A stretch of DNA of 64,000 nucleotides from Stieleria maiorica (GTDB lineage Bacteria > Planctomycetota > Planctomycetia > Pirellulales > Pirellulaceae). Below the pieces are notes generated by a model. It made no database searches. It had not been told where the DNA came from and saw only the letters and a program-made list of their open reading frames with translations. The position numbers were made by a program, and so were the translations under genes. Of this stretch, positions 20,579 to 61,643 are shown one piece after another (position 1 is the stretch's first letter; every line of letters starts with the position of its first letter). The DNA lies in the NCBI RefSeq assembly GCF_008035925.1, contig NZ_CP036264.1:2412443-2476442 (forward strand), read 5' to 3'.

Positions 20579-20873
20579 CGAGATTCCGTCGTCCCGCTGA
20601 TTTACCGCGTTTTTCCTGAGCTTTCTTTCCGATTTCGTCGGCGATCCGCGATCGGTTTTGGGGCAGAGCCCGGGCAGCGTTTAGCGCTTCAGCACTGTTC
20701 GTGTGCTCACCCGAACCGCCGTTCTTTTGGCCAACCGGGCGCAACATTGGTATCATTTGGGGCTATCTAGGAGCGAGCTCGAGTGGGGAAAGGCAGCGTC
20801 GACATCGAGTCGATTCAGGCGGTCCGATCCACGAACTCCGCGTCCGAACTCCGGAAAACTTGACCGGATCTTG

Positions 20874-28400: not shown

Positions 28401-30733
28401 GACTCCATCGAACGCACGCGGTTGTCGATGCCTTTGAGGATCCGATCGGCCGCCGAGGCCAGCGACTCGGCGCGGCGGTTGCGTTTCTCGACCAGTTGCA
28501 CCTTGCGTGATTCGAACGCCGCGTAAACCTCTTCGCGGCGGACGGCCAGTTGTTCGATAAAGTCATCGAACTCGGCGAACTTGCCTTCCAGCTCCTCCAG
28601 CTGCACCATCACCTTGGTCAGGTATTCGTCGCAGCGATCGGGGCTGTCGCAGACGTCCAGATAGCCCGACGTGGTTTGTTCCAACAATTTCAATTGGGAC
28701 GCAAACTCGGCGCGGCCTTCCACACCGACCAACTCGGACGTGCGAGCTTTGAGCGCGCTGCGAACACGGTTGACCGAGGCAAACACGTCGCCGATCGCGT
28801 CGATGATTTCGGTGCGTTTGGTCGCGTCGTCGATGCGCAGGTTGCTGACCGTTTCGGTCAACAATTCCAACTGCGATGCGGCGGCGTCGATTTCTTCGCC
28901 CAGCGACTTCGATTCGGCTACCGTCGCGACTTCCGCCACGCGATCCTTGGCCGCGGCGATGCGATTGATGTAGGGATCCAGGGCGCCGGGGGTGAGCAGA
29001 AAGTCGACACAGCGACGGCTCAACCGTTCGCTGCGCTCGGCCGTGGCGGTTTCGAGCTGGTCGACAAGTTCCAAATCGACGTAGCGGAGTTCCTTCAGCC
29101 CCAAAGCGTGCCCGCGCTGAGTTCGCAGTTCGGCCAGCGAGGTCACGAAATCATCGATCGATTCGAAACGGCTGCGTTCGATCTTCTTGATCAGCGCCTC
29201 GATCGCCGCGGAGACCTCTTTGGTTCGCGAATCCGTCTCGCGCCGGGCCCGGACGACCTTGTCGAATTCTTCGACCGCCGCATTGGACGCTTCGCGAATC
29301 TTTTGCAGCGGTTCGGCCAGCTTTTCCGTTTCCGGCTTGTCGATCCAAAAGTAGCTGTCCAGGACGTCGGACGATTTCTTGTTCAGATCGACGTACAGGC
29401 CCTCGTAGCTGTCGTCTTTGTCGATCAGCTGCAGCAGTTCGCTGCACTCGGCCATCCCCCGGACGATCTCCTTGTTGCCGATTTTGAACAGCAGCGAATC
29501 GGTTTGGTTTTCGGGGACGAAATTGGGGCCGGTGAAGGGCGTCTGCCAGATCTGCACGGCGTGGTGTTTTTGGGCTTCTTCTTGGCCGCGGAAACAGACC
29601 ATCTCGCCGCGTTCGAAGAAGGTTTGTCCGTGACAGATCAGCGGCGTGTCGACGGTTTGTTTGATCAGGTTGTAGCGCAGTTGGACGTAGGTCCCGGAGG
29701 TCGGCGCGTAGAACAGGTACAGGTAGTCTTCACCGTTGGAGGCGGCGACGGTGCGTTGATAACGCATGTCGCTGAGTCCGGTTTCGAACCGTTTGAATTC
29801 GCCGGTTTGCAGGTAGTAGCCGCCGGGGAAGATCAGCCCTTGGTCGCCCGGCAGCATGACGCAGGCCTCGGCGATTTCGTCCAATCGGATCGCCTGCTGG
29901 ATCTTGCTGTTGAAAACCAGGTACCGGAAGCGGTCTTCCTGGTAAGGTTTCATTTTCAGCAACACCAGGTTGCCCAAGACCGCGTAGTAGATTTCCGCGT
30001 CATCGAGCGTTTGGTCGGGGTTATCGACCGGTTCGGCATAGATGCCTTCGCCGCTGCTGGTGTTGTTTTCGACCTTGATGGTCAGGTCACCGCCGACGGT
30101 TTCCACAAACACGATGTCTTCGATCGAGATGTGGGGGTGTTCACCGTAGTGATGTTGATCGCGGGTCGTGCGCGTCCAGCGAAACTCGTGCTGGGCGGGC
30201 TCTTTGACTTCGTGTTCGCTGCGGTTGTCGATATACTCGATCGCATCGGACGTGACCCGCCATTTAAACGACTTGATGTCGCGGTTCGTCTTGCCGACCT
30301 GAAACACCATGTGCAGGATCGGGCCGGAGCGATAGAACCGTGAAAACCGCGTGTCTTTGTAGAACCGATACAGCTCGCTGAAATCGTTGTGGAAACGCGA
30401 ATCACCGATCAGATCCAACGTCGCCTCGTGGAACTGGTTGTCTTCGAACCGGTAGGCCGAAAAAACATCCGAGAGTTCGATTTCCGTCTTCAATCCGAAC
30501 TGGACGTTGTATCCGAACAGGAACTGATCGCCGACGGAAACCAGGTCGCGCGGGACGCAGTTGTGTTCGGTGGTGACACGTTCGGTCGAGATCAACTTGG
30601 TCTCGATATTGCCAAAGACTTCCGCCCGCGACTCGTTCAGTTTGGCAAGCCGGGAACGCAGGTCGTCGGCGGCATCACGCAAACGATTGCGGAGAACTTC
30701 GTAGGTGCCGGCGGCGAGTTGGGAGTCGGGCAT
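25481..30733 (-). CDS. 1750-aa coiled-coil protein with one AAA+ ATPase domain (AAA_5/MoxR-dynein-like) near residues ~1255-1420
   Basis: Walker A is LLLISPPGYGKTTLMEYIANRLG (coding ~26905-26928). Walker B is NVMLYLDDIQ (~26717-26746). The sensor/Arg-finger-like region is SVVMAGNPYTESGERFQIPDMLSNRADVYNLGE. About 1200 aa of predicted helical/coiled-coil sequence lie N-terminal and ~330 aa C-terminal. There is no TM segment. Confidence 0.75.
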   Translation of the reverse strand: MPDSQLAAGTYEVLRNRLRDAADDLRSRLAKLNESRAEVFGNIETKLISTERVTTEHNCVPRDLVSVGDQFLFGYNVQFGLKTEIELSDVFSAYRFEDNQFHEATLDLIGDSRFHNDFSELYRFYKDTRFSRFYRSGPILHMVFQVGKTNRDIKSFKWRVTSDAIEYIDNRSEHEVKEPAQHEFRWTRTTRDQHHYGEHPHISIEDIVFVETVGGDLTIKVENNTSSGEGIYAEPVDNPDQTLDDAEIYYAVLGNLVLLKMKPYQEDRFRYLVFNSKIQQAIRLDEIAEACVMLPGDQGLIFPGGYYLQTGEFKRFETGLSDMRYQRTVAASNGEDYLYLFYAPTSGTYVQLRYNLIKQTVDTPLICHGQTFFERGEMVCFRGQEEAQKHHAVQIWQTPFTGPNFVPENQTDSLLFKIGNKEIVRGMAECSELLQLIDKDDSYEGLYVDLNKKSSDVLDSYFWIDKPETEKLAEPLQKIREASNAAVEEFDKVVRARRETDSRTKEVSAAIEALIKKIERSRFESIDDFVTSLAELRTQRGHALGLKELRYVDLELVDQLETATAERSERLSRRCVDFLLTPGALDPYINRIAAAKDRVAEVATVAESKSLGEEIDAAASQLELLTETVSNLRIDDATKRTEIIDAIGDVFASVNRVRSALKARTSELVGVEGRAEFASQLKLLEQTTSGYLDVCDSPDRCDEYLTKVMVQLEELEGKFAEFDDFIEQLAVRREEVYAAFESRKVQLVEKRNRRAESLASAADRILKGIDNRVRSMESADDIAAYFAGDLMVEKVRDIIDQLQELDDAVRVGDLQSRMKTIREDSVRQLKDRQDLYEDGGHIIRLGKQKFAVNTQPLDLTTVLRNDAMCLHLTGTQFFAPLEDPALSDAKDLWNQELISENRDVYRAEFLAVDLFNNRNSHGPALTAEAVDAGWIQSKIGGRFDQGYAKGVHDHDAAMILAALLQIDARIDLLGHPPSVRAAGLLWFEKLLDSKTRDAMTDWIGGFAKLAKAYPQAEPAVEFRQRLAELAQQDHPLWGPLFDHNVTSEGIANYLFDQLVHNEPEVVCSARAAGLYKAFTDSVPEVDRQTLLEAAMKSNESDPVRSFVLARNWAKAFLANHDGDNQVDPAHYYLDELAWIILSGDLSRQRIAEVEIATSLGGLVGNHDRIQGGKMVVHYHELLRRVGRYMLDIVPRYRKLNETKSRLVDAARDDMRLDEFKPRVLTSFVRNRLLDEVYLPLIGDNLAKQMGAAGENKRTDRMGLLLLISPPGYGKTTLMEYIANRLGLVFMKINGPAIGHQVTSLDPAEAPNAAAKEEVERLNLALEMGDNVMLYLDDIQHTHPEFLQKFISLCDATRKIEGVSNGKTRTYDLRGRRVSVVMAGNPYTESGERFQIPDMLSNRADVYNLGEIIGDSADAFEMSYLENCLTSNTTLAPLSSASPDDARAIIRAAERDTMEGIELQGNFSPDQVRDMYEVMRKLLQVRDVVLRVNRAYIRSAAQADAYRTEPPFKLQGSYRNMNRMAEKVASVMNAKELQSLIVSSYEQDAQTLTTDNEANVLKFKELMGILTPEEKERWDSIKYSFVESIRMQGLDSEDQAGQLMRQLASMRDGLESIRQVISRAIAASGDGSEERMDARIDSLRHSLTASADQLAATLKTTGEQLQRISEHQANAQPPDQKVFVQHKVPRVLADLIKGQFHLMQEWLRPILSESIDNGRDLERLKEQLDAMRANYREIESTFDAASGDEPA

Positions 30734-42901: not shown

Positions 42902-42986
42902 GGATGGGTGGCCGAGTGGTCGAAGGCACTGGTCTTGAAAACCAGCGTAGGGCAACCTACCGTGGGTTCGAATCCCACCCCATCCG
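42902..42986 (+). tRNA. tRNA-Ser (anticodon UGA)
   Basis: The acceptor stem is GGATGGG/CCCATCC. The D-arm is GCCGAGTGGTCGAAGGC. The anticodon stem-loop is CTGGT-CTTGAAA-ACCAG, giving TGA. A long variable arm (CGTAGGGCAACCTACCG) is present. The T-arm is GTGGG-TTCGAAT-CCCAC and the discriminator is G. CCA is not encoded. Confidence 0.85.
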
Positions 42987-43015
42987 CTGCTTCTTCTTTC
43001 GGCGGCCCCTGGATA

Positions 43016-48794: not shown

Positions 48795-49745
48795 ATGAAA
48801 TTCACTCGACGCGACGTCCTGGCGGCTTCGGCCGGACTTTTCTCGATGGCGACCTGTTCGTCTGCGTTCGCTTCGACCGAGGCGAAACGCAAATTCACCG
48901 TTGACCTCCGCTGGGGCAGTATCGGTGTCAAGGCGAACCAGAACGAAGCGATCGAATTGGCGGCCAAGCACGGATTCGAATCGGTCGCAGCGTCACCACA
49001 GGAACTGGAAAAACTGTCCGATGCCCAAAGCGAGGCGTTGGTCGGGACCCTGAAAGAAAAAGGCTTGGTCTGGGGCTCCTCGGGCCTGCCCGTCGATTTC
49101 CGCAAGGACGACGCAACCTTCAAACGCGACTTGGGGGCATTGCCCGCCCAAGCGGCCGCGTTGCGTCGCGCCGGTGTGGACCGAATGGGGACTTGGATCC
49201 GCCCCTGTCACGACGACCTGACTTACGTCGCCAACTTCAAGCAACACGCCGACCGGCTCCGCCAATGTGCCAAAATCTTGAAGGACCATGGCCTGCGTTT
49301 GGGGCTGGAATACGTCGGCACGGCGACCCTGCGCAATTCGAAACGATTCCCGTTCATTCACACGATGCGCGAGACGGCCGAACTGCATTCGGCGATCGGC
49401 GTGGACAACATGGGCTTCGTGCTCGACTCCTGGCACTGGTACACCGCCGGCGAAACCGCCGACGACATCCGCTCATTGAATGCAAACCAAATCGTCGGCT
49501 GTGATTTGAACGACGCCCCCAAGGACGTGCCGGTCGACCAGCAGATCGACAACCGACGCGAACTTCCCGCGGCAACGGGCGTGATCGACGTGAAATCCTT
49601 CCTGCAGGCACTGATCGATGTCGGCTATGACGGTCCGGTCCGCGCCGAACCGTTCAACCAAGCACTCAACCAGATGGACAACGACGACGCCTGCGAGGCG
49701 ACGTCCAAAGCGATCCGAAAAGCGATCGCGCTGGTCGAGGGATAG
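48795..49745 (+). CDS. sugar phosphate isomerase/epimerase (xylose-isomerase-like TIM barrel), Tat-secreted
   Basis: MKFTRRDVLAASAGLFSMA is the Tat signal. The length and HxxE...D.WH motifs match the family. Confidence 0.75.
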   Translation: MKFTRRDVLAASAGLFSMATCSSAFASTEAKRKFTVDLRWGSIGVKANQNEAIELAAKHGFESVAASPQELEKLSDAQSEALVGTLKEKGLVWGSSGLPVDFRKDDATFKRDLGALPAQAAALRRAGVDRMGTWIRPCHDDLTYVANFKQHADRLRQCAKILKDHGLRLGLEYVGTATLRNSKRFPFIHTMRETAELHSAIGVDNMGFVLDSWHWYTAGETADDIRSLNANQIVGCDLNDAPKDVPVDQQIDNRRELPAATGVIDVKSFLQALIDVGYDGPVRAEPFNQALNQMDNDDACEATSKAIRKAIALVEG

Positions 49746-49764
49746 GGTTTCCAGCCTGTCACGA

Positions 49765-50235
49765 GTCGCCGTGTTCTCCGAACTCGGCGTGTTCGACCTC
49801 GTTCCAAGGCTCCGCCTTGGAACGCGATCCTGATGTGGCTCGGCCACATGGTATCTGGCGACGCGAGGCGGAGCCTCGGGGGCTGTGTGTTCCCAGGCGG
49901 GAGCCCGGAACAAGGGGGACGTGGGCCGCTCGCTTACCGGCCTGTTGATTTAATCCGATCACACGTGGGATCAGCCGTTTCGCGCGAGCGTACGGGCTTC
50001 CAATACCAAGAAAACGAACTGGCGCCCGTAGGCTCGCGCCAAACGGCTGATTAAATCAACAGGACGTTACGCGTCCCGCTGGCATGCGCCTCTGCGCCTC
50101 GTTCCAAGGCTCCGCCTTGGAACGCGATGCCGATGTGGCTCCGCCACATGCCCTCTGGTGACGCGAGGCGGGAGCCTCGGGGACCGTGTGTTCCCAGGCA
50201 GGAGCCCGGGAACAAGGGAACAGCGTGTCGCGGAG
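49765..50235. repeat. cluster of nested REP-like hairpins surrounding the second copy of the 125-nt palindromic element
   Basis: Two copies of [TTCCAAGGCTCCGCCTTGGAA hairpin + ATGTGGCTC(C/G)GCCACAT hairpin + GGTGACGCGAGGCGG..GTGTGTTCCCAGGC.GGAGCCCGG..AACAAGGG] lie at 49795-49925 and 50098-50230. They flank the 49935-50060 palindromic element. A half REP (GTCGCCGTGTTCTCCGAACTCGGCG) sits at 49765. Confidence 0.8.
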
Positions 50236-50238
50236 CTG

Positions 50239-51324
50239 TTATGCGGCCTTGCGTAGACGACGGGGTGCTTCGATGCGTCGGCGGACGCTGGCCAACGGCC
50301 CGATTTCCGACGGGGCCGCCTCGGCGTACCAAGCCCTCTGGGCGATCGAATCAAGAATCCGCTCGGCGATCGTGACCGCTCGGGCACCGGCCAATCCGCT
50401 GACCGTCGGCGAAATCCCGGATTGGATGCTGATCACGAAGTCGTGAAGTTCATCCAGGATGGCGTTCCGCGACTCGAGTTGTTTAGTTTCCAGTTGCAGA
50501 TGGTCGGCGAACAATTCGTCGGCATATCCGAGCGGATTGTCGGTGGCTTGGTCCAGGTCGAACGCGCGGTCGACCAACGATTCGCTGGGACGAACGGCGT
50601 GCAGGGCGGGGCCGGAAAAATCGATTTCGGCAAAACCGCCGCATCCATACACTTGCATCTGTCGCGCCGGAGCGGGGCTGACCCGCGACGCTTTGAGATT
50701 CGCGACCAGACCGCAGGCGAATTCCAGCCGGGCTTCGGCCAAATCTTCGTGGTCGCTGACGACCGCCAGTCCGCTGGCCGAGACGTCGGCGACGGCGGCA
50801 TCGGTCATCGAACAAACCAGGTCGATGTCGTGGATCATCAGGTCCATCACCACGCCGACGTCCAGGCAACGACCGGGAAAGCGTGAGGCGCGGACGGCTT
50901 CGACGTACTTCACATCGACACCGATATCGCCCAGCGCGGTGAAGGCCGGGTTGAACCGTTCCACATGTCCGACTTGCAGCGTCAATCGTCGCGAGGCGGC
51001 CAGCATCGCCAGTTTGTCGGCATCGGCCGCGGTCGTCGCCAGCGGTTTTTCGACTAGCAAGTGCTTGCCCGCTTTCAACAGCGTCGTCGCGATCTCGGCA
51101 TGAGCGTCGGTCGGCGCGGCGATCACGGCGGCATCGATCTGGTCGATGCAGTCGCGGTAATCGGCAAAGGTGGGGACGTCGAACAGTTTGGCCGCGTTTT
51201 CTCGGGCGGCTTCGATCGGATCGCTGATCGCGACCAATTGAGCGCCATCAACGCTGCCGAGAAGTTTGGAATGAATTCGGCCCAGATGGCCGGCACCGAT
51301 GACGGCGACGCGCAAACGACTCAT
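50239..51324 (-). CDS. Gfo/Idh/MocA family NAD(P)-dependent oxidoreductase, translationally coupled to lpxA (GnnA-like candidate)
   Basis: MSRLRVAVIGAGHLGRIH is the Rossmann motif and EKPLA is the family consensus. The start ATG overlaps the lpxA stop by 4 nt (ATGA). Confidence 0.8.
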   Translation of the reverse strand: MSRLRVAVIGAGHLGRIHSKLLGSVDGAQLVAISDPIEAARENAAKLFDVPTFADYRDCIDQIDAAVIAAPTDAHAEIATTLLKAGKHLLVEKPLATTAADADKLAMLAASRRLTLQVGHVERFNPAFTALGDIGVDVKYVEAVRASRFPGRCLDVGVVMDLMIHDIDLVCSMTDAAVADVSASGLAVVSDHEDLAEARLEFACGLVANLKASRVSPAPARQMQVYGCGGFAEIDFSGPALHAVRPSESLVDRAFDLDQATDNPLGYADELFADHLQLETKQLESRNAILDELHDFVISIQSGISPTVSGLAGARAVTIAERILDSIAQRAWYAEAAPSEIGPLASVRRRIEAPRRLRKAA

Positions 51325-52133
51325 GCTGCTTTCTTTCTCCGTTGGTCTTGACCGCGTCCGTGACGTCCGCTGCACGAACGATCGACACAATCAAAAAGGT
51401 GTTTGATGACGGGACGAATCGGGCCTTGGGAGTAGACGATTTCGCGAGCCTTGTCGACACCGACGCGGGCTCGGTACAACAACTTGAACGCTTGCGTCAG
51501 CACCGCGATGTCTTCGGCGGTGTACCCGTGACGTTTCAGACCGATCGTGTTGACGGCGCGTGGTTTGGTCGGCTGGCCGTCGACGATCGTGTAGGGCGGC
51601 ACGTCGTGCAGCACCCGGCTCATCGCGCTGACAAAGCTCAACTGTCCGACGCTGGCGAAGTGCGACACGCCGACGCCACCGGCGATCGTGACGTCGTTTC
51701 CGACCCGGACGTGTCCGCCCAGCATGCCGTTGTTGGCGATCACGATGCGGTCGCCGACCTTACAATCGTGCGCGACGTGTGTGCCGGCCATGAAGTAGTT
51801 GTCGTGCCCGATCTCGGTCACGCCGTCTTCCTTTTCGGTCGCCCGATTGACGGTGCAGTGTTCGCGGAAAACGTTGTTGTCGCCGATGACCACTTTCGTC
51901 GGCGTGTCCTTGTAGCTTGTGTCCTGCGGGTGGCCGCCGATCACCGTGCCTTGAAAAATGTGGTTGTCATCACCGATCGTCGAGTGGCCGGTGATGACGA
52001 CGTGCTCTTCGATGAGCGTGCCGTCACCGATTTTTGCATCCGGCCCGATCACAGAAAAATGGCCGATTCGAACGCCGTTTCCAAGTTGAGCCCGCGGATC
52101 AACAACGGCTGTTTGAGCGATGACAACACTCAT
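51321..52133 (-). CDS. lpxA: acyl-ACP--UDP-N-acetylglucosamine O-acyltransferase
   Basis: Left-handed beta-helix hexapeptide repeats are present. The N-terminus IAQTAVVDPRAQLGNGVRIGHFSVIG matches LpxA, as does the C-terminal alpha-helical domain. Confidence 0.9.
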   Translation of the reverse strand: MSVVIAQTAVVDPRAQLGNGVRIGHFSVIGPDAKIGDGTLIEEHVVITGHSTIGDDNHIFQGTVIGGHPQDTSYKDTPTKVVIGDNNVFREHCTVNRATEKEDGVTEIGHDNYFMAGTHVAHDCKVGDRIVIANNGMLGGHVRVGNDVTIAGGVGVSHFASVGQLSFVSAMSRVLHDVPPYTIVDGQPTKPRAVNTIGLKRHGYTAEDIAVLTQAFKLLYRARVGVDKAREIVYSQGPIRPVIKHLFDCVDRSCSGRHGRGQDQRRKKAA

Positions 52134-52286
52134 GGCAAACCAATCTGAATAATTGACAGAGGAAGTTGCGATCTGAAAGCGAAATCAAATCGCGGATGAT
52201 TTGGAACGTAGCAATTCGATGTCTTTTGAATCGAGAGGAATCGGGCTGTTTTTTCGTCCACCAGGGGAAACTTTTTTCGGACCGAT

Positions 52287-53189
52287 TCAGGCCGCGCGGC
52301 GACGATCGCAAAACGAACTCACCTGATCCCGCGATCGCGACAACGTGGCCAACTCGTGGAGCGCTTTGGCCATCCGACCGTTCAACCGATGACCGCCGCG
52401 ATAGGAGATGAATTTTCCGACCAGTTCGACACCGACCAACGCCAGATCCCCGACAAGATCCAACGCCTTGTGACGAGCGCATTCGTTTTTGAAACGGACT
52501 TCATTTTCGATCGGGCCGTCATCGCCAAAGACCAACAGGTCCTGGTAAGAAACATGCTTTGCGACACCGCGGGCATGCAGCGATTTGGCTTGGCTTTCGG
52601 TCACGAACGTCCGCGCCGGAGCGACGTCCCGGCTGAACCGTGTCGGTGTGCAGGGGAATCCGTAACATTGATTGCTGATCTCGCCTTCTTGATCGAACAC
52701 CAACTGGTAGCCGAAGTGACTGACGCCCGTCGGGACCGGCGACGCGGAAATCCAAGACGATCCTTCGTGCAGCGTGATCACTTGGTCGATCACCAATCGG
52801 CGTCGTTCGCCCGCTTGGATCACCAACCCCGCCCCGGCCAACGCGTCGATGTAGGGCTTGCTGCTGCCGTCGAGCCCCGGCAGTTCCTTGCCGCTGATTT
52901 CCACGACGCAGTTGTCGATTTCCATCGCGTAGAGCGCCGCCATCAGATGTTCAATCATCTCGAACTCGGCGCTGCCACAGGCGACGTTGGTCCGCAGCTG
53001 GGCGTCGGTGCGTTGACTGACGTGAGCCGGACAGGACGGCTGGCCAGGCAAATCCGAACGCACAAGCGTGATGCCCGTGTTCACGGGGGCTGGATGCATG
53101 ACGACGTCGACTTCTTTTGCCGTCCAATAGCCTCGGCCACTCAGCCGACAAGAAGAAGCGATGGAATGCTGGTTGCGTGATAGCTTCAC
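52287..53189 (-). CDS. lpxC: UDP-3-O-acyl-N-acetylglucosamine deacetylase
   Basis: GITLVRSD...EH.MAAL....DN....I.G.E.P..DGSS match the LpxC consensus. The C-terminal HKALDLVGDLAL is also present. Confidence 0.85.
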   Translation of the reverse strand: MKLSRNQHSIASSCRLSGRGYWTAKEVDVVMHPAPVNTGITLVRSDLPGQPSCPAHVSQRTDAQLRTNVACGSAEFEMIEHLMAALYAMEIDNCVVEISGKELPGLDGSSKPYIDALAGAGLVIQAGERRRLVIDQVITLHEGSSWISASPVPTGVSHFGYQLVFDQEGEISNQCYGFPCTPTRFSRDVAPARTFVTESQAKSLHARGVAKHVSYQDLLVFGDDGPIENEVRFKNECARHKALDLVGDLALVGVELVGKFISYRGGHRLNGRMAKALHELATLSRSRDQVSSFCDRRRAA

Positions 53190-53398
53190 GGCGTGCCTCC
53201 CTGCCTGATCAAGCCACTTTTCGAATCCGGAAAATAAAAACGACGGACATCGCTGTCCGCCGCTTTGTGTCTGGTGTCAGCCGACGCCCTTGCCCACTGA
53301 CGTCGACCGTCGCCTGCTGACGCGGCCCTTTGCCGTTTTGGTGCGACCCCTCGCCAGTTGGCGACGGGAGTTGCACCGCATGCAGGGCTGCGTCGTCT

Positions 53399-54088
53399 CT
53401 ACTGACGCTGAGTGCTGTTACGTCCCGCGATCGCCGGATCCGTCTTGATGACCTTGTCCAGGTATTGCATCACACCCGGGGTCATGTCCAACGCGGCATC
53501 GTGATAAACGATGTTCTTCATCACGCCACGGATGACCGATTCGCCTTGCTCCTGATTCATTTCTTCGCTGTTGTAGCGAAGCACCAGGTTGATCTTGTAG
53601 TGGTTGGCCAAGAACTTCACGCCCGCGGCGATTTGCTGGTAGTTGTCGTAGTAGATTTTGGCTTCCGCGTCGGCCAATTCCTTGCGTTTGCGAGCCATGT
53701 CCAAGCGGAGCTTGGAATCCATGCTGGCCAGTTGCTCTTCCAGTTGAGCGTATTCGGGCGATCCCGGCGACAGCGTTTTCAGCTTGGCGGCGGTGTTCTG
53801 AAGCTGCTCTCGCTTTTGCTTCAGTTCGGCGTCGTAGGCCTTCAAATCGCCTTCGACTTTCGCCACCTGGACCTTGATCCCGGGATGATTCTTAAAGATG
53901 TAAGCGACGTCCACGACCGCGACGCGGTGAGGAGCCGATTCCTGTGCAGAAGCCGTCCCGCTGATCAGGCACGGAGCTAACACAGTTGCCAATCCGATGG
54001 CAATTCCACAGACGTGATGGCGAACGGTTCGCACTTTCGCTCTCCTTGCGTATTGAGTCGCAGTCCATTTGTCACAGCGATGAAACAA
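53399..54088 (-). CDS. skp: OmpH/Skp family periplasmic chaperone
   Basis: A signal peptide is followed by a long coiled-coil-rich ~160 aa (VAVVDVAYIFKNHPG...). Its position 5' of the lpx genes matches the conserved skp-lpx cluster. The N-terminal start is uncertain. Confidence 0.6.
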   Translation of the reverse strand: MFHRCDKWTATQYARRAKVRTVRHHVCGIAIGLATVLAPCLISGTASAQESAPHRVAVVDVAYIFKNHPGIKVQVAKVEGDLKAYDAELKQKREQLQNTAAKLKTLSPGSPEYAQLEEQLASMDSKLRLDMARKRKELADAEAKIYYDNYQQIAAGVKFLANHYKINLVLRYNSEEMNQEQGESVIRGVMKNIVYHDAALDMTPGVMQYLDKVIKTDPAIAGRNSTQRQ

Positions 54089-54254
54089 ACCGAGTTACCG
54101 CCTCAATTTGCTCGCAATGGCCCGATGCAGACATTCGTTGTCTGGTCCGAACCACCCAGTCGCTGTCGTGCCGAAATCGCTCCGGCGTTTGTTCACTAAT
54201 TACCGATTGTGGCAATCGTCCCCGGCCACGTAAAGATTGATCATGCGCTTTTTT

Positions 54255-56357
54255 CTAGGAGCGTTTCTCAAGCTTTCCACGCAGCATCACGGTGTTCGCC
54301 TCGCGACGCACCTCGATCTCGAAGGTGTCGCCGGGCTCGTGCGCCCGCACCCACGACAAGACGTCGCTTGTGGTGCGAATCACCTGCCGGCCGATCCGTT
54401 GAATCTGGTCGTCGATTTGCAATCCCGCTTTCGATGCCGGGCCCCCCTCGGTCACGTCGGTGACGCTGACCACGCCGCCTCGTTCCGTAATCCGCACGCC
54501 CAAAAATGCCGTCATCTGACGACGGATCTGGACCCTCGGATCGGTCTCGGCATACGCGGGCCGTTGGGGGAGCACCGCCAGTTGAAATGCCACTTCAGAA
54601 ACCATATCGGTTACACGGGTTAGGTTCCCAAAATCGATTTTGTCGAAATCGTCAGAAGGTCGATGATAATCGTTGTGCAGCCCCGTGAAGAAAAACAACA
54701 CCGGCACACCGACCCGGTAAAACGACTGGTGATCGCTGGGACCATAACCACTGGCGACCTTAAAAAGGTCAAAGCCGAAGCGGTCGTTGGCCGCGTCCAC
54801 GACGGGTTCTAATCCGCTGGCCGATCCCGTCCCGTAAACCGTCAATTCGTTGTCGCGAAGCCGGCCGACCATGTCCAAATTGATCATCGCCGCCGTGGTT
54901 TCGATCGGCCGCACCGGGTTTTCGACATAATGCTGGCTGCCCAACAACCCACGCTCTTCGCCGGTGAACCCGATGAACAACACGGTGCGGTGCGAAGCCG
55001 TCGATTCCAACCGACGCATCAATTCCGATCCGCAAGCCAACATCGCCGCCGTCCCGCTGGCGTTGTCATCGGCTCCGTTGTGCACCGCGATCGTTCCCGG
55101 GGCCAAGGAGCCGAAGCCGCCCATGCCGACGTGGTCGTAATGGGCGCCCACCACGATCGTTTCGTTCGCTAGCAAACCCTTGCCGGGCAATCGCCCGATC
55201 ACGTTGTCGCTGGCCGCGACCGCCGGTTTCAAATCGACCGATAATTCGGCGGTCACGCCCTCGAGCGTCCGGCTGTCCGGCCGAAACGTCCGGTCGATTT
55301 CCGCCTCGACCTCTTCCAGCCCCACCCCGCCGCCGGCGCGCAGCATTTGATCGGCCAGATCGCGGGCGATCGAAGCAACCGGGATCTTCTCGGTCTGCTT
55401 GGTTTTCGTTCCTGCATCGGCGATCCCCAGAACGCCGCGTCGGGCAGCGGAAAGCTGGGATTGCATCGCCACAATCATCCGCTCGGTCGCCGCGATCTTC
55501 TCCGCCGTCGCCGCGCGGTTCTTGACCGCTTGCTGGGGAAGATTTTTCAGCACCTCGGCCAAGCGTTCCTTGCGGCGCACTTCCTGGTCGATGCGATTCT
55601 GTTCCTCCTGGACTGCGTCGCGAACGCTCCGCGGATCATTGACGATCAACACGCCGGCCGCCCCCTGCTTGATCGCCTCCGCGACCTTGGTGGCAAAGTA
55701 GGCGTGCCGCGTATTTTTGACACCGTCGAAGGGGCTGTCCGGGTCGCCGGCCCCGGGCTCTTTTCGCAGGATCAACACGATCGCACCGCGGGCATCGACC
55801 GAGGCGTAGTCGTCGTAGTGGTGCGATTCGGAACGGATCCCGTAGCCGGCAAAAACCACCCGCGCCGACACGGATTGTTTGTCGCTGCCGATGCCCAGCG
55901 GCCCGAACCCACCGTTCAAGTCCGCTTCGATGACGCTTTGGCCGGGGAGCTGAATGCGACAGACGTTGCCTTCTTCATTGCGAACCTCACTGCCAACCGT
56001 GATCGCGACGCTTTGAAAGGGGCTGCCGGCGACCGAGTCCAGTTGCAGCCCGATCGATTCCATTCGCTCGCGCAAATAGTTTCGCGCGACATCAATCGTC
56101 TCGTCGGTCACACTCCGCCCGCGCAGCTCCTCCGACGCCAGGTATTCAACGTCCTGACGCAGCGTCGCCATCAGTGACGCTGACTCGTCGTCAACAGACC
56201 CTTGTGCCGGGCAACTAGCTGCATCGATCGATAACAACACAAGTTGCAAAAGTGCCAGATGCATCGCGACCGCAACAGCCGTCCTCACGATGCAGGACGA
56301 CTTGGGAAGCGGCGAGTTTGTTCGGGTGGTCATGTGCCGGATATCGGATCGATTCAA
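54255..56357 (-). CDS. M28 family zinc aminopeptidase with PA domain and C-terminal PDZ domain, secreted
   Basis: GAHYDHVG, NGADDNASG, GFTGEERGLLGSQHY and GPSDHQSF are the M28 zinc-ligand motifs. The C-terminal GVRITERGGVVSVTDVTEGGPASKAGLQIDDQI is PDZ. Confidence 0.8.
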   Translation of the reverse strand: MNRSDIRHMTTRTNSPLPKSSCIVRTAVAVAMHLALLQLVLLSIDAASCPAQGSVDDESASLMATLRQDVEYLASEELRGRSVTDETIDVARNYLRERMESIGLQLDSVAGSPFQSVAITVGSEVRNEEGNVCRIQLPGQSVIEADLNGGFGPLGIGSDKQSVSARVVFAGYGIRSESHHYDDYASVDARGAIVLILRKEPGAGDPDSPFDGVKNTRHAYFATKVAEAIKQGAAGVLIVNDPRSVRDAVQEEQNRIDQEVRRKERLAEVLKNLPQQAVKNRAATAEKIAATERMIVAMQSQLSAARRGVLGIADAGTKTKQTEKIPVASIARDLADQMLRAGGGVGLEEVEAEIDRTFRPDSRTLEGVTAELSVDLKPAVAASDNVIGRLPGKGLLANETIVVGAHYDHVGMGGFGSLAPGTIAVHNGADDNASGTAAMLACGSELMRRLESTASHRTVLFIGFTGEERGLLGSQHYVENPVRPIETTAAMINLDMVGRLRDNELTVYGTGSASGLEPVVDAANDRFGFDLFKVASGYGPSDHQSFYRVGVPVLFFFTGLHNDYHRPSDDFDKIDFGNLTRVTDMVSEVAFQLAVLPQRPAYAETDPRVQIRRQMTAFLGVRITERGGVVSVTDVTEGGPASKAGLQIDDQIQRIGRQVIRTTSDVLSWVRAHEPGDTFEIEVRREANTVMLRGKLEKRS

Positions 56358-56568: not shown

Positions 56569-59500
56569 TTACGCCGCTTCGGGCGTCTTCTCACCCCGTT
56601 GGACCAACATCAACAGGATCGGGCTGGCCACGAAGATCGAACTGTAGGTTCCGACCAGGACACCGACGACCAGACAGAACGCAAACGCGTGGATCCCTTC
56701 GCCGCCGAACAGGTACAGCAGCACGACCACAATCAACGTGGTGATCGAAGTCAACAAGGTCCGGCTGAGCGTTTGATTGATGCTGGTGTTGATCATTTCG
56801 CCGGTCAACCGCGGTGCCTTGCCTTTGGTTTCCCGGATCCGGTCAAACACGACGATCGTGTCGTTCAGCGAATAACCGATGATCGTCAGCAATGCCGCGA
56901 CCACGGTCAGACTGATCTTGAAGGGGTCGATCAACAGGAATCCGAGTGCATCGGCGACGTAGTAGCTGATCGCGATCGCACCGAGCGTGATCAAAACGTC
57001 GTGGACCAACGCCGCGACGGCCGCAAAGCCATAGATGACGCGCTGGAATCGGAACCAGATGTACAAGATGATCACCATCAAGCTGGCGAACAGGGCGACC
57101 GAGGCGCGTCCGACCATTTGACCGGCGACCCGTGCACCGACGCTGCTGCTGCTGACCCAAACCGGTTCGTTGCCCAATGATCGCTCGACGACCTGCATCA
57201 CCTTGTCGGCCGCGTCGTTGCCCATCGGCAACGTCACTTTCCACTCGGAAAACGGCACGCTCGATCCGCTCTTCCAATCCTCGGCGCCTTCGCCGCTGGG
57301 CAGCAAATCGACGGCACGTTCATTCAGCGGGATGTTTAATTCGTCGGCGGCCTCTTTCATCCGGTTGATCAACGTCGGGCCGCTGATCGAGGCACTCGTG
57401 TCGCCGCCGCCGATCCCCAAGCTGATGCGGCGAACGGCCGATTCGCCCGCGGTCAGTGACGGCTCGGCGCTGGTTGACTCGGAGGTTGCTTCACTGTCGG
57501 CAGCTTCACTGTCGGCCTGCATCGCGACCAGCATCACGCCGTTGGAATCGCGGCCGATCGAGGAGGTTTCCGATCCGCCGGCGGAGATCGTGACGTCGTA
57601 GGTGACCAGATCGGTATCGGTGGACGCTTCAAACGCCTCGACGATTCGCGCTTGCAGATCATCGACCGAAACCAGCGACGAATCGACTTTAAACACCGTC
57701 CCGTCATCGGCGCCGTCCATCGTCACGCCGTTGACGGTGAATTGGACGGGCGAGCCGTCTTGGTCACCGATCCCTGCACCGACGATCTCGCGAATGGTCT
57801 CCGTCGTCGTCGTCTCATTGACGCGGAATTGGACCGACGATCCGCCGGCAAAGTCGATGTCCAGGATGTTCTTGCCGCGTGCGAACAGCGATCCGAGACC
57901 GATCAGGATCAGGATCGCAGAAACGGCCAGGGCCGGTTTTCCTTTGCCGATGAAGTCCATCATGCCGCCGCCGGACACGGAATTCTTGATCGCGTTGACC
58001 ATATCCGACATCCCCAGCGACACCTTGTTGTGACGCTCGGCGATATCGAACAGCGTTCGCGACATGTAGATCGCGGTGAACATCGAGTACAGGATCCCCA
58101 AGATCAACGTGACGGCAAAGCCACGGATCTGGTCGGTTCCGATCGCGTACAACACGATCGCCGTGAACAGCGTCGTCAAGTTGGCATCGATAATGGTGAC
58201 CGTCGCCTTGGCAAATCCGTTTCGAATCGCCATCCGGTCCTTGGCACCCTTGCTGATCTCCTCGCGGATCCGTTCAAAAATCAACACGTTCGCGTCGACC
58301 GACATACCGACGGTCAAAACCAGACCGGCCAGTCCCGGCAGCGTCAGCGGTTGGTGAATCAGCACCATCGTCGCCAGAATCATGCCCAGGTTCAGCACCA
58401 GGGCCAAGCACGCGATTGCACCGGCAAACCGGTAATAGAACAGGATAAAGATCAGCACCAGCGACAGCGAAACGCCGATCGCCATCACGCCTTTGCGGAT
58501 CGTGTCGGCACCCAACGTCGCGTCGATCTGGTTCTTCGCGATCGGTTGTTTCGTCAGAGCCGCAGGCAATTGGCCGGCTTTCAAAATATCGACCAACGCT
58601 TTGACTTCTTCGGTCGTGAAATTACCGGTGATTCGACCTTGCTTGCTGATCGGTTGCAGGATGTTCGGTGCCGACAACAGTCGGTCGTCCATCACGATCC
58701 CGAGTTGACGTTGGCGGGTTCCCTGCGGCGCGTTTTCGGTCGTCAAGACACGGAACTTGCCGCTGCCGGAATCGGTCAGGTTGAACGCGACCGCCGGGGC
58801 GCCTTGCTCGTCAAAGGTGGTCGATGCGAACGCCAGGTCTTCACCTTTGACGTCGATATCGGGATCGATGATCATCAGCACCTCCAATCCCGACAGCCCT
58901 TGCTGGTCGACCCAGCTGGCTTGCAAGGCTTGGTCGCCGCGGACGGTGCTCGGCAATTCGATGAATTCGCCGGTGTCCGGGTTGCGAACGATCGCGTTCC
59001 CGACGTTGACGCGGAACGGCCCGTTGTCGCCCGTCCGAGTCGTCTCGCGGTCGACGATGGCCCAACGGCCGACCGTGCGACCATCGACGTCCGAAATCAC
59101 TTCGCTCATGCGGATCGCACGTTCTTTCGACGCCGCCTGTTCGGCCGCCAAGTTGATGATCCGCTGGTGGTCGGTTCGGTTGGCGAGGATTGCGAAACGC
59201 AGGATCCCGGCCTGCTTGAGCGTCTCTTCGATCTGGGCGACTTCGCGTTGATCGACTTCCGGGATGATGATTTCGATTTGCGAATCACCGTACGGACGGA
59301 TCACGATCTCACGCGTGCCGCTGGGGTTGATCCGCTTCGTTAGCGGGCCGACCAAATCCTTGGACTTGACCCCGTTGCCTTGCTGTTCGGCGTCCGGGTT
59401 GCTTTTGCTGGGGTCGATCTCATAGACCAGAATCGTTCCGCCGCGAAGGTCCACGCCCCGGTCGGGCAGTCGGTTCAACAGCACCGTGACGCTGGCGGTG

Positions 59501-59751
59501 ATCGCCAACAGGATGAACCCGATTCGCGTGCTGTGATTGGGCATCTTCAGCCGTTTGGCGAAGAACCCGCCCACCATGAACGGCAGGATCATCACCGCCA
59601 ATGCAATGGCCAGCATTCCGTACTGCTGCCATGAAATACCTTGTTCGGCGTCAGCTTGAGCGATCAGGCCGGCCAGCAGACTCGGGGCGGCCAATGTGAG
59701 ATCGGCCAGAGTGACGTCGGCTGGGGGCTGAACGAGAGAAAAGCAGTCCAT
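56569..59751 (-). CDS. secDF: protein translocase subunit SecDF (fused SecD-SecF)
   Basis: At 1060 aa it covers both subunits. It has two 6-TM bundles and periplasmic domains. The motifs VDANVLIFERIREE (SecD) and YSLNDTIVVFDRIRE (SecF) are present. It sits downstream of yajC. Confidence 0.9.
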   Translation of the reverse strand: MDCFSLVQPPADVTLADLTLAAPSLLAGLIAQADAEQGISWQQYGMLAIALAVMILPFMVGGFFAKRLKMPNHSTRIGFILLAITASVTVLLNRLPDRGVDLRGGTILVYEIDPSKSNPDAEQQGNGVKSKDLVGPLTKRINPSGTREIVIRPYGDSQIEIIIPEVDQREVAQIEETLKQAGILRFAILANRTDHQRIINLAAEQAASKERAIRMSEVISDVDGRTVGRWAIVDRETTRTGDNGPFRVNVGNAIVRNPDTGEFIELPSTVRGDQALQASWVDQQGLSGLEVLMIIDPDIDVKGEDLAFASTTFDEQGAPAVAFNLTDSGSGKFRVLTTENAPQGTRQRQLGIVMDDRLLSAPNILQPISKQGRITGNFTTEEVKALVDILKAGQLPAALTKQPIAKNQIDATLGADTIRKGVMAIGVSLSLVLIFILFYYRFAGAIACLALVLNLGMILATMVLIHQPLTLPGLAGLVLTVGMSVDANVLIFERIREEISKGAKDRMAIRNGFAKATVTIIDANLTTLFTAIVLYAIGTDQIRGFAVTLILGILYSMFTAIYMSRTLFDIAERHNKVSLGMSDMVNAIKNSVSGGGMMDFIGKGKPALAVSAILILIGLGSLFARGKNILDIDFAGGSSVQFRVNETTTTETIREIVGAGIGDQDGSPVQFTVNGVTMDGADDGTVFKVDSSLVSVDDLQARIVEAFEASTDTDLVTYDVTISAGGSETSSIGRDSNGVMLVAMQADSEAADSEATSESTSAEPSLTAGESAVRRISLGIGGGDTSASISGPTLINRMKEAADELNIPLNERAVDLLPSGEGAEDWKSGSSVPFSEWKVTLPMGNDAADKVMQVVERSLGNEPVWVSSSSVGARVAGQMVGRASVALFASLMVIILYIWFRFQRVIYGFAAVAALVHDVLITLGAIAISYYVADALGFLLIDPFKISLTVVAALLTIIGYSLNDTIVVFDRIRETKGKAPRLTGEMINTSINQTLSRTLLTSITTLIVVVLLYLFGGEGIHAFAFCLVVGVLVGTYSSIFVASPILLMLVQRGEKTPEAA

Positions 59752-59967: not shown

Positions 59968-60258
59968 TTAGTCCTTGGCGTCGTCCTTGGGCTTTTTTTC
60001 TTCGATGACCGTCAGCGCCCACCGGCTGACCTTCACCCGTATCGTGCCGCTTTCGTCCAGCCGAATCGTCACCACATCGCTGTCGCTCGGGGCACTGACG
60101 ACCGTTCCGTGTAATCCGCCGTTGGTGATCACGCGATCATTCTTTTTGATCGCCGCGATCCGTTTTGCCTCTTCCGCCTTGCGTCGACGCTCCGGAGCAA
60201 TCAACGTCAGATAGAAGATCAAAATGATTCCCGCGATCGGGAACAGCGGATTCTCCAT
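59968..60258 (-). CDS. yajC: preprotein translocase subunit YajC
   Basis: MENPLFPIAGIILIFYLTLIAPERRRKAEEAKRIAAIKKNDRVITNGGLHGTVV matches YajC. I took the start at the internal Met; the ORF track begins at 60420. Confidence 0.8.
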   Translation of the reverse strand: MENPLFPIAGIILIFYLTLIAPERRRKAEEAKRIAAIKKNDRVITNGGLHGTVVSAPSDSDVVTIRLDESGTIRVKVSRWALTVIEEKKPKDDAKD

Positions 60259-60422
60259 CAACTGCAATAGAAACGGTTTGGGCTCGGCGACCTCCGCCGG
60301 GACATCTTCGGCCAGGAATAGCCAAGGTGCGAATTGAAGCAGGGGGTGGATCACAATCCGGACCGATTGGGTTCTCATCTGGTTGGCAAAATACAAGTGC
60401 GGCATGATATGGAAGCCCAAAA

Positions 60423-61643
60423 TTGGTCACAAGCCCAGCCAGCGCCGAACTTTCATTGCTTTTGCCAGTCTCACGTGGCTGCAGACCGCTCCCGATGACC
60501 CACCACACCCCTCCCAAACCCGCGTCAACGCCAGCAAATGCCGGTCCGGTGCCCCCTCCGGATCACTCCGGCGGCCCCCAACCCAACGCCGATTCCCATT
60601 TTTTTCCTACCTGGCCTCCCCAGTGGCCCGAGATTACCGAGTCCATTCTGCAGGTCCTCCGCAGTGGCCACTGGGGCCGCTATCGGGGGGAAGCAACGGA
60701 AAGGCTTCGAGAAAAGATTGTCGAATTGATCGGCTGTGGGCACGTGCGTTTGGTCAGCAGCGGATCACTGGGCGTCGAATCGGCCCTCCGCGCCGCCGGA
60801 ATCTCGCCCGGCAACCAGGTCGCCCTGTGCGGCTATGACTACCCGGGAAACTTTCGCGCGATCGAAATCTTGGGAGCCCGGCCGCTTTTGGTCGACGCTG
60901 ATCCGGCCGGATTCTCGGTCGATCCCGAATCGCTGCGGCAAGTCAGCCCTGAATCGGTGAAAGCTGTCGTCGTCTCACACCTGTATGGCGTCCCCGCGAA
61001 AATCCGCCAGCTGCGCGAAATCTGTGACCAGAAGGACTGGGCGCTGATCGAAGACGCCTGCCAGACGCCGGGCATGGCGATCGACGGCCGGCCGGCCGGG
61101 GCCTGGGGCGACGTCGCCGTGCTCAGCTTCGGCGGCAGCAAACCGTTGACCGCCGGAAACGGGGGCGCCGTGCTGACCAACAACGACAGGATTGCGAGCA
61201 AACTGAACGCCTACCTCGACCGCCCCAGTGATTCGACCCCGATGAGTGAATTGCAGGCCGCGGCGTTACTGCCCCAGTTGGACCGGTTGGACGAGTGCAA
61301 TCGGATTCGCTGGGAAACCTATTCGGCAATCGTCGCCGGCGTCGATTGGACCGGCCGGGCGACGTCCAGTTGCCGCGTGACCGAGCCCTCGACGATTTAC
61401 AAAGCGGCATTCTTAACACCGCGACGCGACGCACTGATCGAGCGGCTGCGGCGATCGGGGCTTCCCGTCGGTCCGGGCTATCGGTCGATGCACCGCAGCA
61501 GCGATCGGCGCTGCGATAAATCTGGGCCACTGGATCGCTGCCGCCAGCTCGGCGAACAGCTTTGCCTGCTCGACCACGCGGCGCTGCTGGCCACCGGATC
61601 ACTTCGAAGCGAGCTGATCGATTTGCTAACAGCTGCGGGATAG
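60423..61643 (+). CDS. DegT/DnrJ/EryC1/StrS family PLP-dependent aminotransferase
   Basis: ILQVLRSGHW is the N-terminal motif. VSSGSLGVESALRA and DACQTPG are present, and SFGGSKPLTAGNGGAV carries the PLP lysine. The N-terminal ~25-60 aa is Pro-rich, so the start may be at 60495. Confidence 0.8.
   Translation: MVTSPASAELSLLLPVSRGCRPLPMTHHTPPKPASTPANAGPVPPPDHSGGPQPNADSHFFPTWPPQWPEITESILQVLRSGHWGRYRGEATERLREKIVELIGCGHVRLVSSGSLGVESALRAAGISPGNQVALCGYDYPGNFRAIEILGARPLLVDADPAGFSVDPESLRQVSPESVKAVVVSHLYGVPAKIRQLREICDQKDWALIEDACQTPGMAIDGRPAGAWGDVAVLSFGGSKPLTAGNGGAVLTNNDRIASKLNAYLDRPSDSTPMSELQAAALLPQLDRLDECNRIRWETYSAIVAGVDWTGRATSSCRVTEPSTIYKAAFLTPRRDALIERLRRSGLPVGPGYRSMHRSSDRRCDKSGPLDRCRQLGEQLCLLDHAALLATGSLRSELIDLLTAAG

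Follow-up and report, generated by a model that had tools for sequence, protein, structure and literature searches.

A GnnA-like oxidoreductase gene overlapping lpxA in Stieleria maiorica and a predicted diamino sugar lipid A in planctomycetes

An oxidoreductase gene overlapping lpxA and its relation to GnnA

The stretch of DNA analyzed here, 64,000 nucleotides of the Stieleria maiorica genome (contig NZ_CP036264.1, positions 2,412,443 to 2,476,442; referred to below as the window), carries the genes skp-lpxC-lpxA, directly followed on the same strand by a gene for a Gfo/Idh/MocA-family oxidoreductase whose start codon lies on the lpxA stop codon (Table 1). When sequence, predicted fold, and gene order are considered together, the best reading of this oxidoreductase is that of a planctomycete GnnA orthologue, with the corresponding enzyme activity as a prediction. 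The generic label "Gfo/Idh/MocA family oxidoreductase" is thereby replaceable by GnnA orthologue throughout the phylum, where GnnA has so far been neither annotated nor discussed. The GnnA of Acidithiobacillus ferrooxidans was reportedly described by Sweet, Ribeiro, and Raetz in 2004 as a 3-dehydrogenase of uridine diphosphate-N-acetylglucosamine (UDP-GlcNAc), and such enzymes are found in bacteria that build lipid A on 2,3-diamino-2,3-dideoxyglucose (GlcN3N), as in "four-amide" lipid A.

Profile matches identify the genes preceding the oxidoreductase gene. LpxA exceeds the cut-offs of both of its family models (226 for NF003657, with the score given in Table 1, and 231 for TIGR01852, with a score of 279 bits), matches the domains PF00132 (hexapeptide left-handed beta-helix) and PF13720 (C-terminal Acetyltransf_11), and reaches a top score of 212 bits against LpxA sequences in the PDB. 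LpxC scores 186.8 bits with TIGR00325, marginally below the cut-off of 187.25. As the downstream neighbor is convergent, the oxidoreductase gene is the last of the operon. A scan of positions 49600-54400 returned zero sigma-70-like promoters, with terminator-like matches at or below the shuffled expectation, and an exact protein look-up returned no record of the GnnA-like protein with its start at ATG 51324. This gene layout, including the ATGA overlap, had been described in an earlier, sequence-only reading of the window, which had also remarked that no aminotransferase gene adjoins the pair and that a DegT-family open reading frame (ORF) lies 9 kb off at 60423-61643; ORF reading and profile matches bear out each of these statements.

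That reading had further called the oxidoreductase GnnA-like, and GnnA is indeed its closest characterized relative by both sequence and fold. A phmmer search of the PDB gave 7bvj/7bvk, A. ferrooxidans GnnA, as best match (162.6 bits, E 1.3e-46), with the runner-up entry at 77.6 bits. An AlphaFold2 (AF2) model of the oxidoreductase, with a mean predicted local distance difference test score (pLDDT) of 81.7 and a predicted template modeling score (pTM) of 0.79, retrieved GnnA chains from the same two entries at all of Foldseek ranks 1 to 5 (E 3e-30 to 3e-27; root mean square deviation 2.7-4.0 Å; target TM score 0.88-0.91), the match spanning both domains, and the first non-GnnA match, a glucuronide 3-dehydrogenase, followed at E 9e-23. 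Both searches thus place the oxidoreductase nearer to characterized GnnA than to other characterized Gfo/Idh/MocA enzymes. Conservation of individual residues points in the same direction: in an alignment of 32 sequences that includes GnnA, the glycines G10, G12, and G15 of the GxGxxG motif, E92-K93-P94, and D161...H165 (D-x-x-x-H) are invariant, as are H18, H75, H120, R145, R152, D194, R214, and R221.

At full length the oxidoreductase is 34-36% identical to the GnnA proteins of Acidithiobacillus and Desulfuromonas, which are themselves 45% identical to one another. Because LpxA of the window is comparably diverged from Acidithiobacillus LpxA (38% identity), this level fits the distance between the species and vertical descent. 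Among NCBIfam models, the archaeal UDP-GlcNAc 3-dehydrogenase (NF040723) ranks first and myo-inositol dehydrogenase second for the oxidoreductase, and the identical ranking is obtained with a 243-aa fragment of true GnnA (7bvj) and with syntenic relatives. In a neighbor-joining tree (numpy implementation, 200 bootstraps), used as consistency evidence only, A. ferrooxidans GnnA branches close to the family's base, and the planctomycete sequences group loosely together.

Gene order was compared by a family scan with one genome per species, which returned 80 loci. The order (skp-)lpxC-lpxA-gnnA occurs in every planctomycete class sampled (Pirellulales, Planctomycetales, Isosphaerales, Brocadiales/Kuenenia, and Phycisphaerae), and the lpxA-gnnA arrangement is likewise present in Stieleria varia and Novipirellula, so that the arrangement first remarked upon in S. 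maiorica is phylum-wide in Planctomycetota. Both genes are found at 25 loci, 23 of them planctomycete and one (L002) a duplicate of another (L001), and 17 of the 25 show an in-frame [A/G]TGA overlap, which is also seen in Stieleria varia and Novipirellula. Start/stop overlaps of 4 bp are frequent in operons, and one alone means little; the overlap in the window carries weight nonetheless, because it is conserved at these 17 loci and recurs in identical form, as ATGA, in Acidithiobacillus. The association with lipid A genes that marks GnnA is therefore seen for the oxidoreductase gene as well.

Outside the phylum, the Acidithiobacillus locus reads bamA-skp-lpxD-fabZ-lpxA-gnnA-gnnB-lpxB, which agrees with the claim of the sequence-only reading that gnnA and gnnB adjoin lpxA in GlcN3N organisms. 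Desulfuromonas versatilis has the same gene order, and its protein is named UDP-N-acetylglucosamine 3-dehydrogenase at NCBI. Other arrangements are gnnA-DegT-lpxB in Methylococcaceae and other Gammaproteobacteria, lpxA-lpxI-gnnA-lpxB in Desulfobacterales (L048), and gnnA-lpxB or gnnA-lpxB-lpxI-lpxC in Omnitrophota. The family copies of Bacteroidota and Ignavibacteria are unlinked to lpx genes; in Flavobacteriia and other Bacteroidota the genes on either side are pcm (protein-isoaspartate methyltransferase) and that for a 3-hydroxybutyryl-CoA dehydrogenase, or else one for a Bac_transf sugar transferase.

The oxidoreductase therefore shares with A. ferrooxidans GnnA the two-domain Gfo/Idh/MocA fold, the conserved motifs, and a gene placed right after lpxA with an ATGA overlap. 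It differs in length, with about 50 extra residues, in its disordered basic tail, which terminates in RKAA, and in sequence, with only 34-35% identity. The surroundings differ too, as gnnB and lpxB directly follow gnnA in Acidithiobacillus whereas the Stieleria operon ends at the gnnA-like gene, and lpxA is preceded by lpxC in Stieleria and by lpxD-fabZ in Acidithiobacillus. In Methylococcaceae, other Gammaproteobacteria, and Desulfuromonas, the uncharacterized orthologues from gnnA-gnnB-lpxB clusters are members of the same family (34-41% identical to the window protein by tblastn; Desulfuromonas, 36%) and likewise linked to lipid A genes, but have an adjacent canonical GnnB that is 50-60% identical to A. 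ferrooxidans GnnB. Relatives from Bacteroidota are 35-41% identical to the window protein.

Table 1. Features of the lipid A locus and its surroundings; positions are those of the window
Feature	Position	Strand	Remarks
Gene downstream of the operon, convergent	48795-49745	plus	xylose-isomerase-like TIM barrel
gnnA-like Gfo/Idh/MocA oxidoreductase, 361 aa, predicted UDP-GlcNAc 3-dehydrogenase	50239-51324	minus	PF01408, PF22725, PF02894; ATG at 51324-51322, stop at 50239-50241
Tail codons of GnnA-like protein, LRKAA	50242-50256	minus	end of disordered extension, residues 345-361
ATGA overlap, gnnA-like start on lpxA TGA	51321-51324	minus	4 bp in common; direct sequence reading
Tail codons of LpxA, RRKKAA	51324-51341	minus	purine-rich stretch CGGAGAAAGAAA directly upstream of gnnA start codon
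lpxA, acyl-ACP--UDP-GlcNAc(3N) acyltransferase, 270 aa	51321-52133	minus	NF003657, 313 bits
lpxC, UDP-3-acyl-GlcNAc deacetylase, 300 aa	52287-53189	minus	PF03331, 264 bits
Tail codons of LpxC, RRRAA	52290-52304	minus	
skp, OmpH/Skp periplasmic chaperone	53399-54088	minus	PF03938; first member of the conserved skp-lpxC-lpxA-gnnA block
M28/PDZ peptidase gene	54255-56357		upstream of skp
secDF	56569-59751	minus	upstream of M28/PDZ peptidase gene
DegT/DnrJ/EryC1/StrS-family pyridoxal phosphate (PLP) aminotransferase	60549-61643	plus	ORF open from 60423; PF01041, 167 bits

A predicted route to diamino sugar lipid A and its aminotransferase

Physiological context is provided by the transposon sequencing essentialome of Planctopirus limnophila, in which Plim_0920 (skp), Plim_0919 (lpxC), and Plim_0918 (lpxA) are all essential (PMC10632474). 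The product of Plim_0917, which directly follows lpxA on the same strand, is labeled "oxidoreductase domain protein," measures 360 aa, and resembles the window protein in its Pfam layout, with PF01408 over residues 5-120 and PF02894 over residues 153-221; the gene has an insertion index of 0.021, and its initial call of "unclear" was re-scored as "essential" (PMC10632474). Its 23 insertions are distributed unevenly: 20 cluster within the final ~29 codons, two fall in the opening codons, and one is near codon 263 (PMC10632474). As the downstream gene Plim_0916 is non-essential (PMC10632474), the essentiality of Plim_0917 is not explained by polarity. The lipid A context that the sequence-only reading had proposed for the GnnA-like gene is thus strengthened by the essentiality of its positional counterpart.

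The same data set contains two DegT paralogues, the essential Plim_0836 ("Glutamine--scyllo-inositol transaminase") and the non-essential Plim_2763 (PMC10632474). An essential gnnA together with an essential DegT transaminase would be expected if LpxA depended on the product of the pathway, UDP-GlcNAc3N. Plim_1734 (clpX) is also essential in these data and is not discussed in the paper (PMC10632474). Taken together, the essential Plim_0836, Plim_0917, and clpX fit an obligatory GnnA/GnnB route. The text of the paper contains no mention of Plim_0917, Plim_0836, or GlcN3N (PMC10632474), and such a route offers an explanation for two P. limnophila "essential genes of unassigned role."

We consider it likely that the GnnA orthologue is cotranscribed with skp-lpxC-lpxA and feeds GlcN3N lipid A by means of a GnnB encoded elsewhere. 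The gnnA-like gene would be transcribed with the rest of the block and, through the ATGA overlap, translated in step with and stoichiometrically to LpxA. GnnA would then oxidize the 3''-OH of UDP-GlcNAc to a 3-keto sugar in an NAD-dependent reaction, and an unlinked DegT-family transaminase, GnnB, would convert this to UDP-GlcNAc3N. LpxA could N-acylate position 3 of UDP-GlcNAc3N, and LpxC, LpxD, and later enzymes would yield a lipid A in which glucosamine (GlcN) is wholly or partly replaced by 2,3-diamino-2,3-dideoxyglucose, with acyl chains attached through amide bonds at positions 3 and 3' and GlcN3N at one or both backbone positions. On comparative grounds, planctomycetes probably contain GlcN3N lipid A, and we regard this as a well-supported prediction. 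A preference of LpxA for UDP-GlcNAc3N, of the Leptospira/Mesorhizobium type, is assumed in this scheme; the window LpxA scores 191.6 bits with Leptospira LpxA (3hsq) and nearly the same, 199.7 bits, with E. coli LpxA (1lxa), and we know of no sequence marker for LpxA selectivity toward GlcNAc3N.

Lipid A structure governs the stability of the outer membrane, its resistance to cationic peptides, and TLR4 recognition, yet until about ten years ago it was disputed whether Planctomycetota have lipopolysaccharide (LPS) at all. In the searchable literature there is no paper that links planctomycetes with GlcN3N and no established structure of a planctomycete lipid A backbone, and a 2025 review of lipid A regulation mentions neither planctomycetes nor GnnA. 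The outcome of the analysis is thus a testable prediction of a GlcN3N backbone, with named genes: Plim_0917 and its orthologues as gnnA and Plim_0836 as candidate gnnB.

Several points weigh against a GlcN3N route. The oxidoreductase reaches only 177 bits with NF040723 against a cut-off of 450, although this model is an archaeal equivalog and A. ferrooxidans GnnA itself, in the form of the 243-aa fragment from 7bvj, likewise falls below the cut-off, at 151 bits. The phylogeny that the sequence-only reading had put forward as a check answers in part: the family does hold A. ferrooxidans GnnA near its base, but deep support is weak (30-71%) and just two outgroups were used. Orthology of Plim_0917 is based on position, length, and domain layout rather than on alignment. 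A study of Gemmata LPS (Mahat 2016) reportedly found glucosamine and proposed a conventional backbone; the difference of 1 Da per sugar is easily overlooked in low-resolution matrix-assisted laser desorption/ionization (MALDI) spectra. The remaining points concern the aminotransferase. A GnnB-group hidden Markov model (HMM) run over the sampled loci and a six-frame translation of the window returned no GnnB orthologue, only the divergent Stieleria DegT protein, and among about 23 planctomycete loci Stieleria alone has a DegT gene within 8 kb. Finally, this window DegT shows just 27-30% identity (93-129 bits) to all members of the GnnB group.

Whether the window DegT could itself be the GnnB partner, loosely linked through a block of DegT | yajC-secDF-M28 peptidase-skp-lpxC-lpxA-gnnA, deserves consideration. 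It is the only DegT gene within the window, a solitary gene with no other sugar-modifying genes nearby; its start at 60549 is the start of a 100%-identical S. maiorica database entry, it belongs to the DegT fold family, and SFGGSK, the motif with the PLP lysine, is retained. In several Pirellulaceae genera (Stieleria, Novipirellula, Rubripirellula, and one further metagenome-assembled genome; L001, L084, L085, and L086) the gene is likewise paired divergently with yajC-secDF, and three of these four loci run on into the M28 peptidase gene that precedes the lpx block. The putative yajC of the window, at about 59968-60420 on the minus strand, is identified from its synteny only.

Comparison with bona fide GnnB proteins nevertheless makes this assignment unlikely. 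A. ferrooxidans GnnB (L087, 9012-10097) and the gnnA-adjacent GnnB-like proteins of Desulfuromonas and Gammaproteobacteria form a tight group with 50-60% mutual identity, to which the window DegT does not belong, given its distance from every member and its position away from gnnA. With the HMM of this group it scores 105 bits, below its score with the generic Pfam DegT model (Table 1), whereas group members score 720-770. In PDB searches the syntenic GnnB-like proteins match 7b0d ("Glutamine--scyllo-inositol transaminase") at 388 bits, and also QdtB and WbpE, whereas the matches of the window DegT are weak throughout, at 109 bits or less. Its rate of evolution also far exceeds that of the lipid A enzymes, with 47% identity between S. 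maiorica and S. varia (77% for GnnA) and 61% between S. maiorica and Roseiconus (82% for GnnA); the yajC-secDF-paired DegT proteins are 44-47% identical between genera. In Novipirellula CA13 the gene is unlinked and missing from the position beside yajC-secDF, and DegT homologues are without the C-terminal tail of LpxC, LpxA, and GnnA described below.

By these comparisons the window DegT is probably not a GnnB orthologue, and the real partner of the GnnA orthologue is probably encoded elsewhere in the genome. A dispersed arrangement of this kind has counterparts among organisms with proven GlcN3N or hybrid lipid A of solved structure, namely Campylobacter jejuni, Capnocytophaga canimorsus, Mesorhizobium, and Phyllobacterium, several of which have gnnA and gnnB dispersed and unlinked to lpxA; the likeness is one of gene arrangement, not of alignment. 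Capnocytophaga, for instance, makes a GlcN3N-GlcN hybrid lipid A from dispersed gnnA and gnnB. In P. limnophila, the automatic name that Plim_0836 has in common with 7b0d hints weakly at a connection with the canonical GnnB/WbpE-like subgroup.

A C-terminal tail common to LpxC, LpxA, and the GnnA-like protein

A further connection between the oxidoreductase and the lipid A enzymes is found at the ends of the proteins. Among the 47 window ORFs of at least 120 aa, only LpxC (...DRRRAA), LpxA (...QRRKKAA), and GnnA (...RRLRKAA) have a C-terminus made up of a basic stretch and a final Ala-Ala. At 21 planctomycete loci, the motif is present in its strict form in 23 of 57 LpxC, LpxA, and GnnA proteins and in none of 173 other ORFs, and in a relaxed form in 46 of 57 against 6 of 173. 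The enrichment corresponds to Fisher p values of 3e-18 for the strict motif (background 0/217, which includes 44 other window ORFs) and 4e-31 for the relaxed one, computed on sequences that are not phylogenetically independent. Ends of LpxC, LpxA, and GnnA-like proteins in Planctomycetia consist of a basic stretch with Ala-Ala or Ala-Gly (L001-L021, L033, L039, L050, L053, and L057), and about 115 of 120 close GnnA homologues end in R[RK]AA or similar, whereas the motif was found in 0 of 57 GnnA relatives outside the phylum. As this lineage-specific tail is common to all three proteins and is not seen in neighboring ones, it ties GnnA to LpxA and LpxC.

In GnnA the tail sits at the end of a C-terminal extension of about 30-50 residues that is found in planctomycete GnnA proteins and absent in A. 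ferrooxidans GnnA. Residues 345-361 of the S. maiorica protein have a pLDDT below 50 in the AF2 model, and the insertions tolerated in Plim_0917 fall mainly in the tail region (20/23, as given above). The extension of the GnnA-like protein is thus disordered and dispensable.

The Arg/Lys codons of the LpxA tail (CGG AGA AAG AAA) make up a tract that is rich in purines, includes GGAG, and lies 13-16 nt ahead of the gnnA ATG (51325-51345, minus strand), and from their composition and spacing these bases may double as the gnnA ribosome-binding site. That the LpxA tail is merely a Shine-Dalgarno-like tract for gnnA was considered and rejected as a full explanation, because LpxC and GnnA bear the tail without an overlapping downstream gene.

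A different explanation is suggested by the resemblance of the planctomycete tails (RRKKAA, RRRAA, and RKAA) to degrons recognized by ClpX, such as RRKKAI of MuA and ...LAA of ssrA. E. coli LpxC, in comparison, is turned over through a different C-terminal degron, LAFKAPSAVLA, which is recognized by FtsH. It could be speculated by analogy that the common tail of LpxC, LpxA, and GnnA may be a degron for coordinated turnover. The 2025 review mentioned above describes no tail common to three pathway enzymes that include LpxA and GnnA. The wider proposal, that planctomycetes obligately build GlcN3N lipid A and coregulate LpxC, LpxA, and GnnA proteolytically through a common degron tail, is tentative, and we hold it to be rather doubtful. 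If true, coordinated control by degrons would constitute a new form of flux regulation into lipid A, unlike the LpxC-only FtsH/LapB system of enterobacteria.

Alternative roles for the oxidoreductase and other features of the window

A UDP-GlcNAc 3-dehydrogenase need not serve lipid A. The oxidoreductase could instead supply a 2,3-diacetamido sugar to another glycan, such as O-antigen, a capsule, or a surface glycoprotein, as in archaea, with the lipid A retaining GlcN. Its top NCBIfam match, the archaeal UDP-N-acetylglucosamine 3-dehydrogenase, catalyzes the reaction predicted for the oxidoreductase, but in a pathway unrelated to lipid A; the relatives in Bacteroidota and Ignavibacteria adjoin sugar transferases rather than lpx genes; and the glucosamine reportedly found in Gemmata LPS would be consistent with such a role. 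WbpB/WlbA and WbpE offer an analogy, as they carry out oxidation at position 3 and then transamination of a UDP-2-acetamido sugar, but they do so in an O-antigen context, on a uronic acid (UDP-GlcNAcA), and their similarity is weak: the PDB search gave 30.5 bits for 3q2k, which we take to be a WlbA. A role in another glycan is difficult to reconcile with the overlap with lpxA throughout the phylum and with the embedding of the gene between lpxA or lpxI and lpxB in other phyla. Likewise, Plim_0917 is essential whereas genes for surface glycans seldom are, and the oxidoreductase has its C-terminal tail in common with LpxA and LpxC only. We regard this role as improbable.

Equally improbable in our judgment is a diverged GnnA-family enzyme that acts on another substrate, either an acylated lipid A intermediate or another UDP-sugar, in another envelope function for which a transaminase would be unneeded. 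Such an enzyme would account for the lack of a linked GnnB orthologue at any of the ~23 planctomycete loci, for the C-terminal extension, and for the modest identity to GnnA. The eight further residues that are invariant in the family, from H18 to R221, are however all retained, the structural match covers both domains, and the extension is disordered and dispensable. Separation of gnnA from gnnB is moreover found in proven GlcN3N organisms, for example Mesorhizobium and Capnocytophaga, and P. limnophila does possess an essential DegT paralogue.

That an unrelated sugar or inositol dehydrogenase follows lpxA by chance, as might be imagined from the many Gfo/Idh/MocA paralogues of planctomycete genomes (such as that at 17364-18713, the only other one in the window), can practically be dismissed, as the overlap with lpxA is kept in different classes and phyla, the similarity is specific to GnnA, and the family HMM scores the gnnA-like protein at 450 bits but this paralogue at 49. 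The preferred assignment therefore remains a GnnA orthologue that probably serves GlcN3N lipid A.

Further features of the window lie outside the lipid A locus. The paralogue at 17364-18713 (plus strand) is a second, distant Gfo/Idh/MocA oxidoreductase of 449 aa (PF19051, PF01408), outside the GnnA family by its HMM score, beside a sulfatase gene at 18944-20578. Two giant ORFs are found on the minus strand, one of 1943 aa at 9645-15476 with FG-GAP repeats, DUF7133, HEAT repeats, and a C-terminal 3-keto-disaccharide hydrolase domain, and one of 1750 aa at 25481-30733. The only tRNA gene of the window is a tRNA-Ser(TGA) at 42902-42987 (plus strand), and no tmRNA gene lies within it. A fatty acid desaturase at 20703-22202 (plus strand) has an N-terminal match to sphingolipid delta-4 desaturase (Lipid_DES), which is unusual for bacteria.

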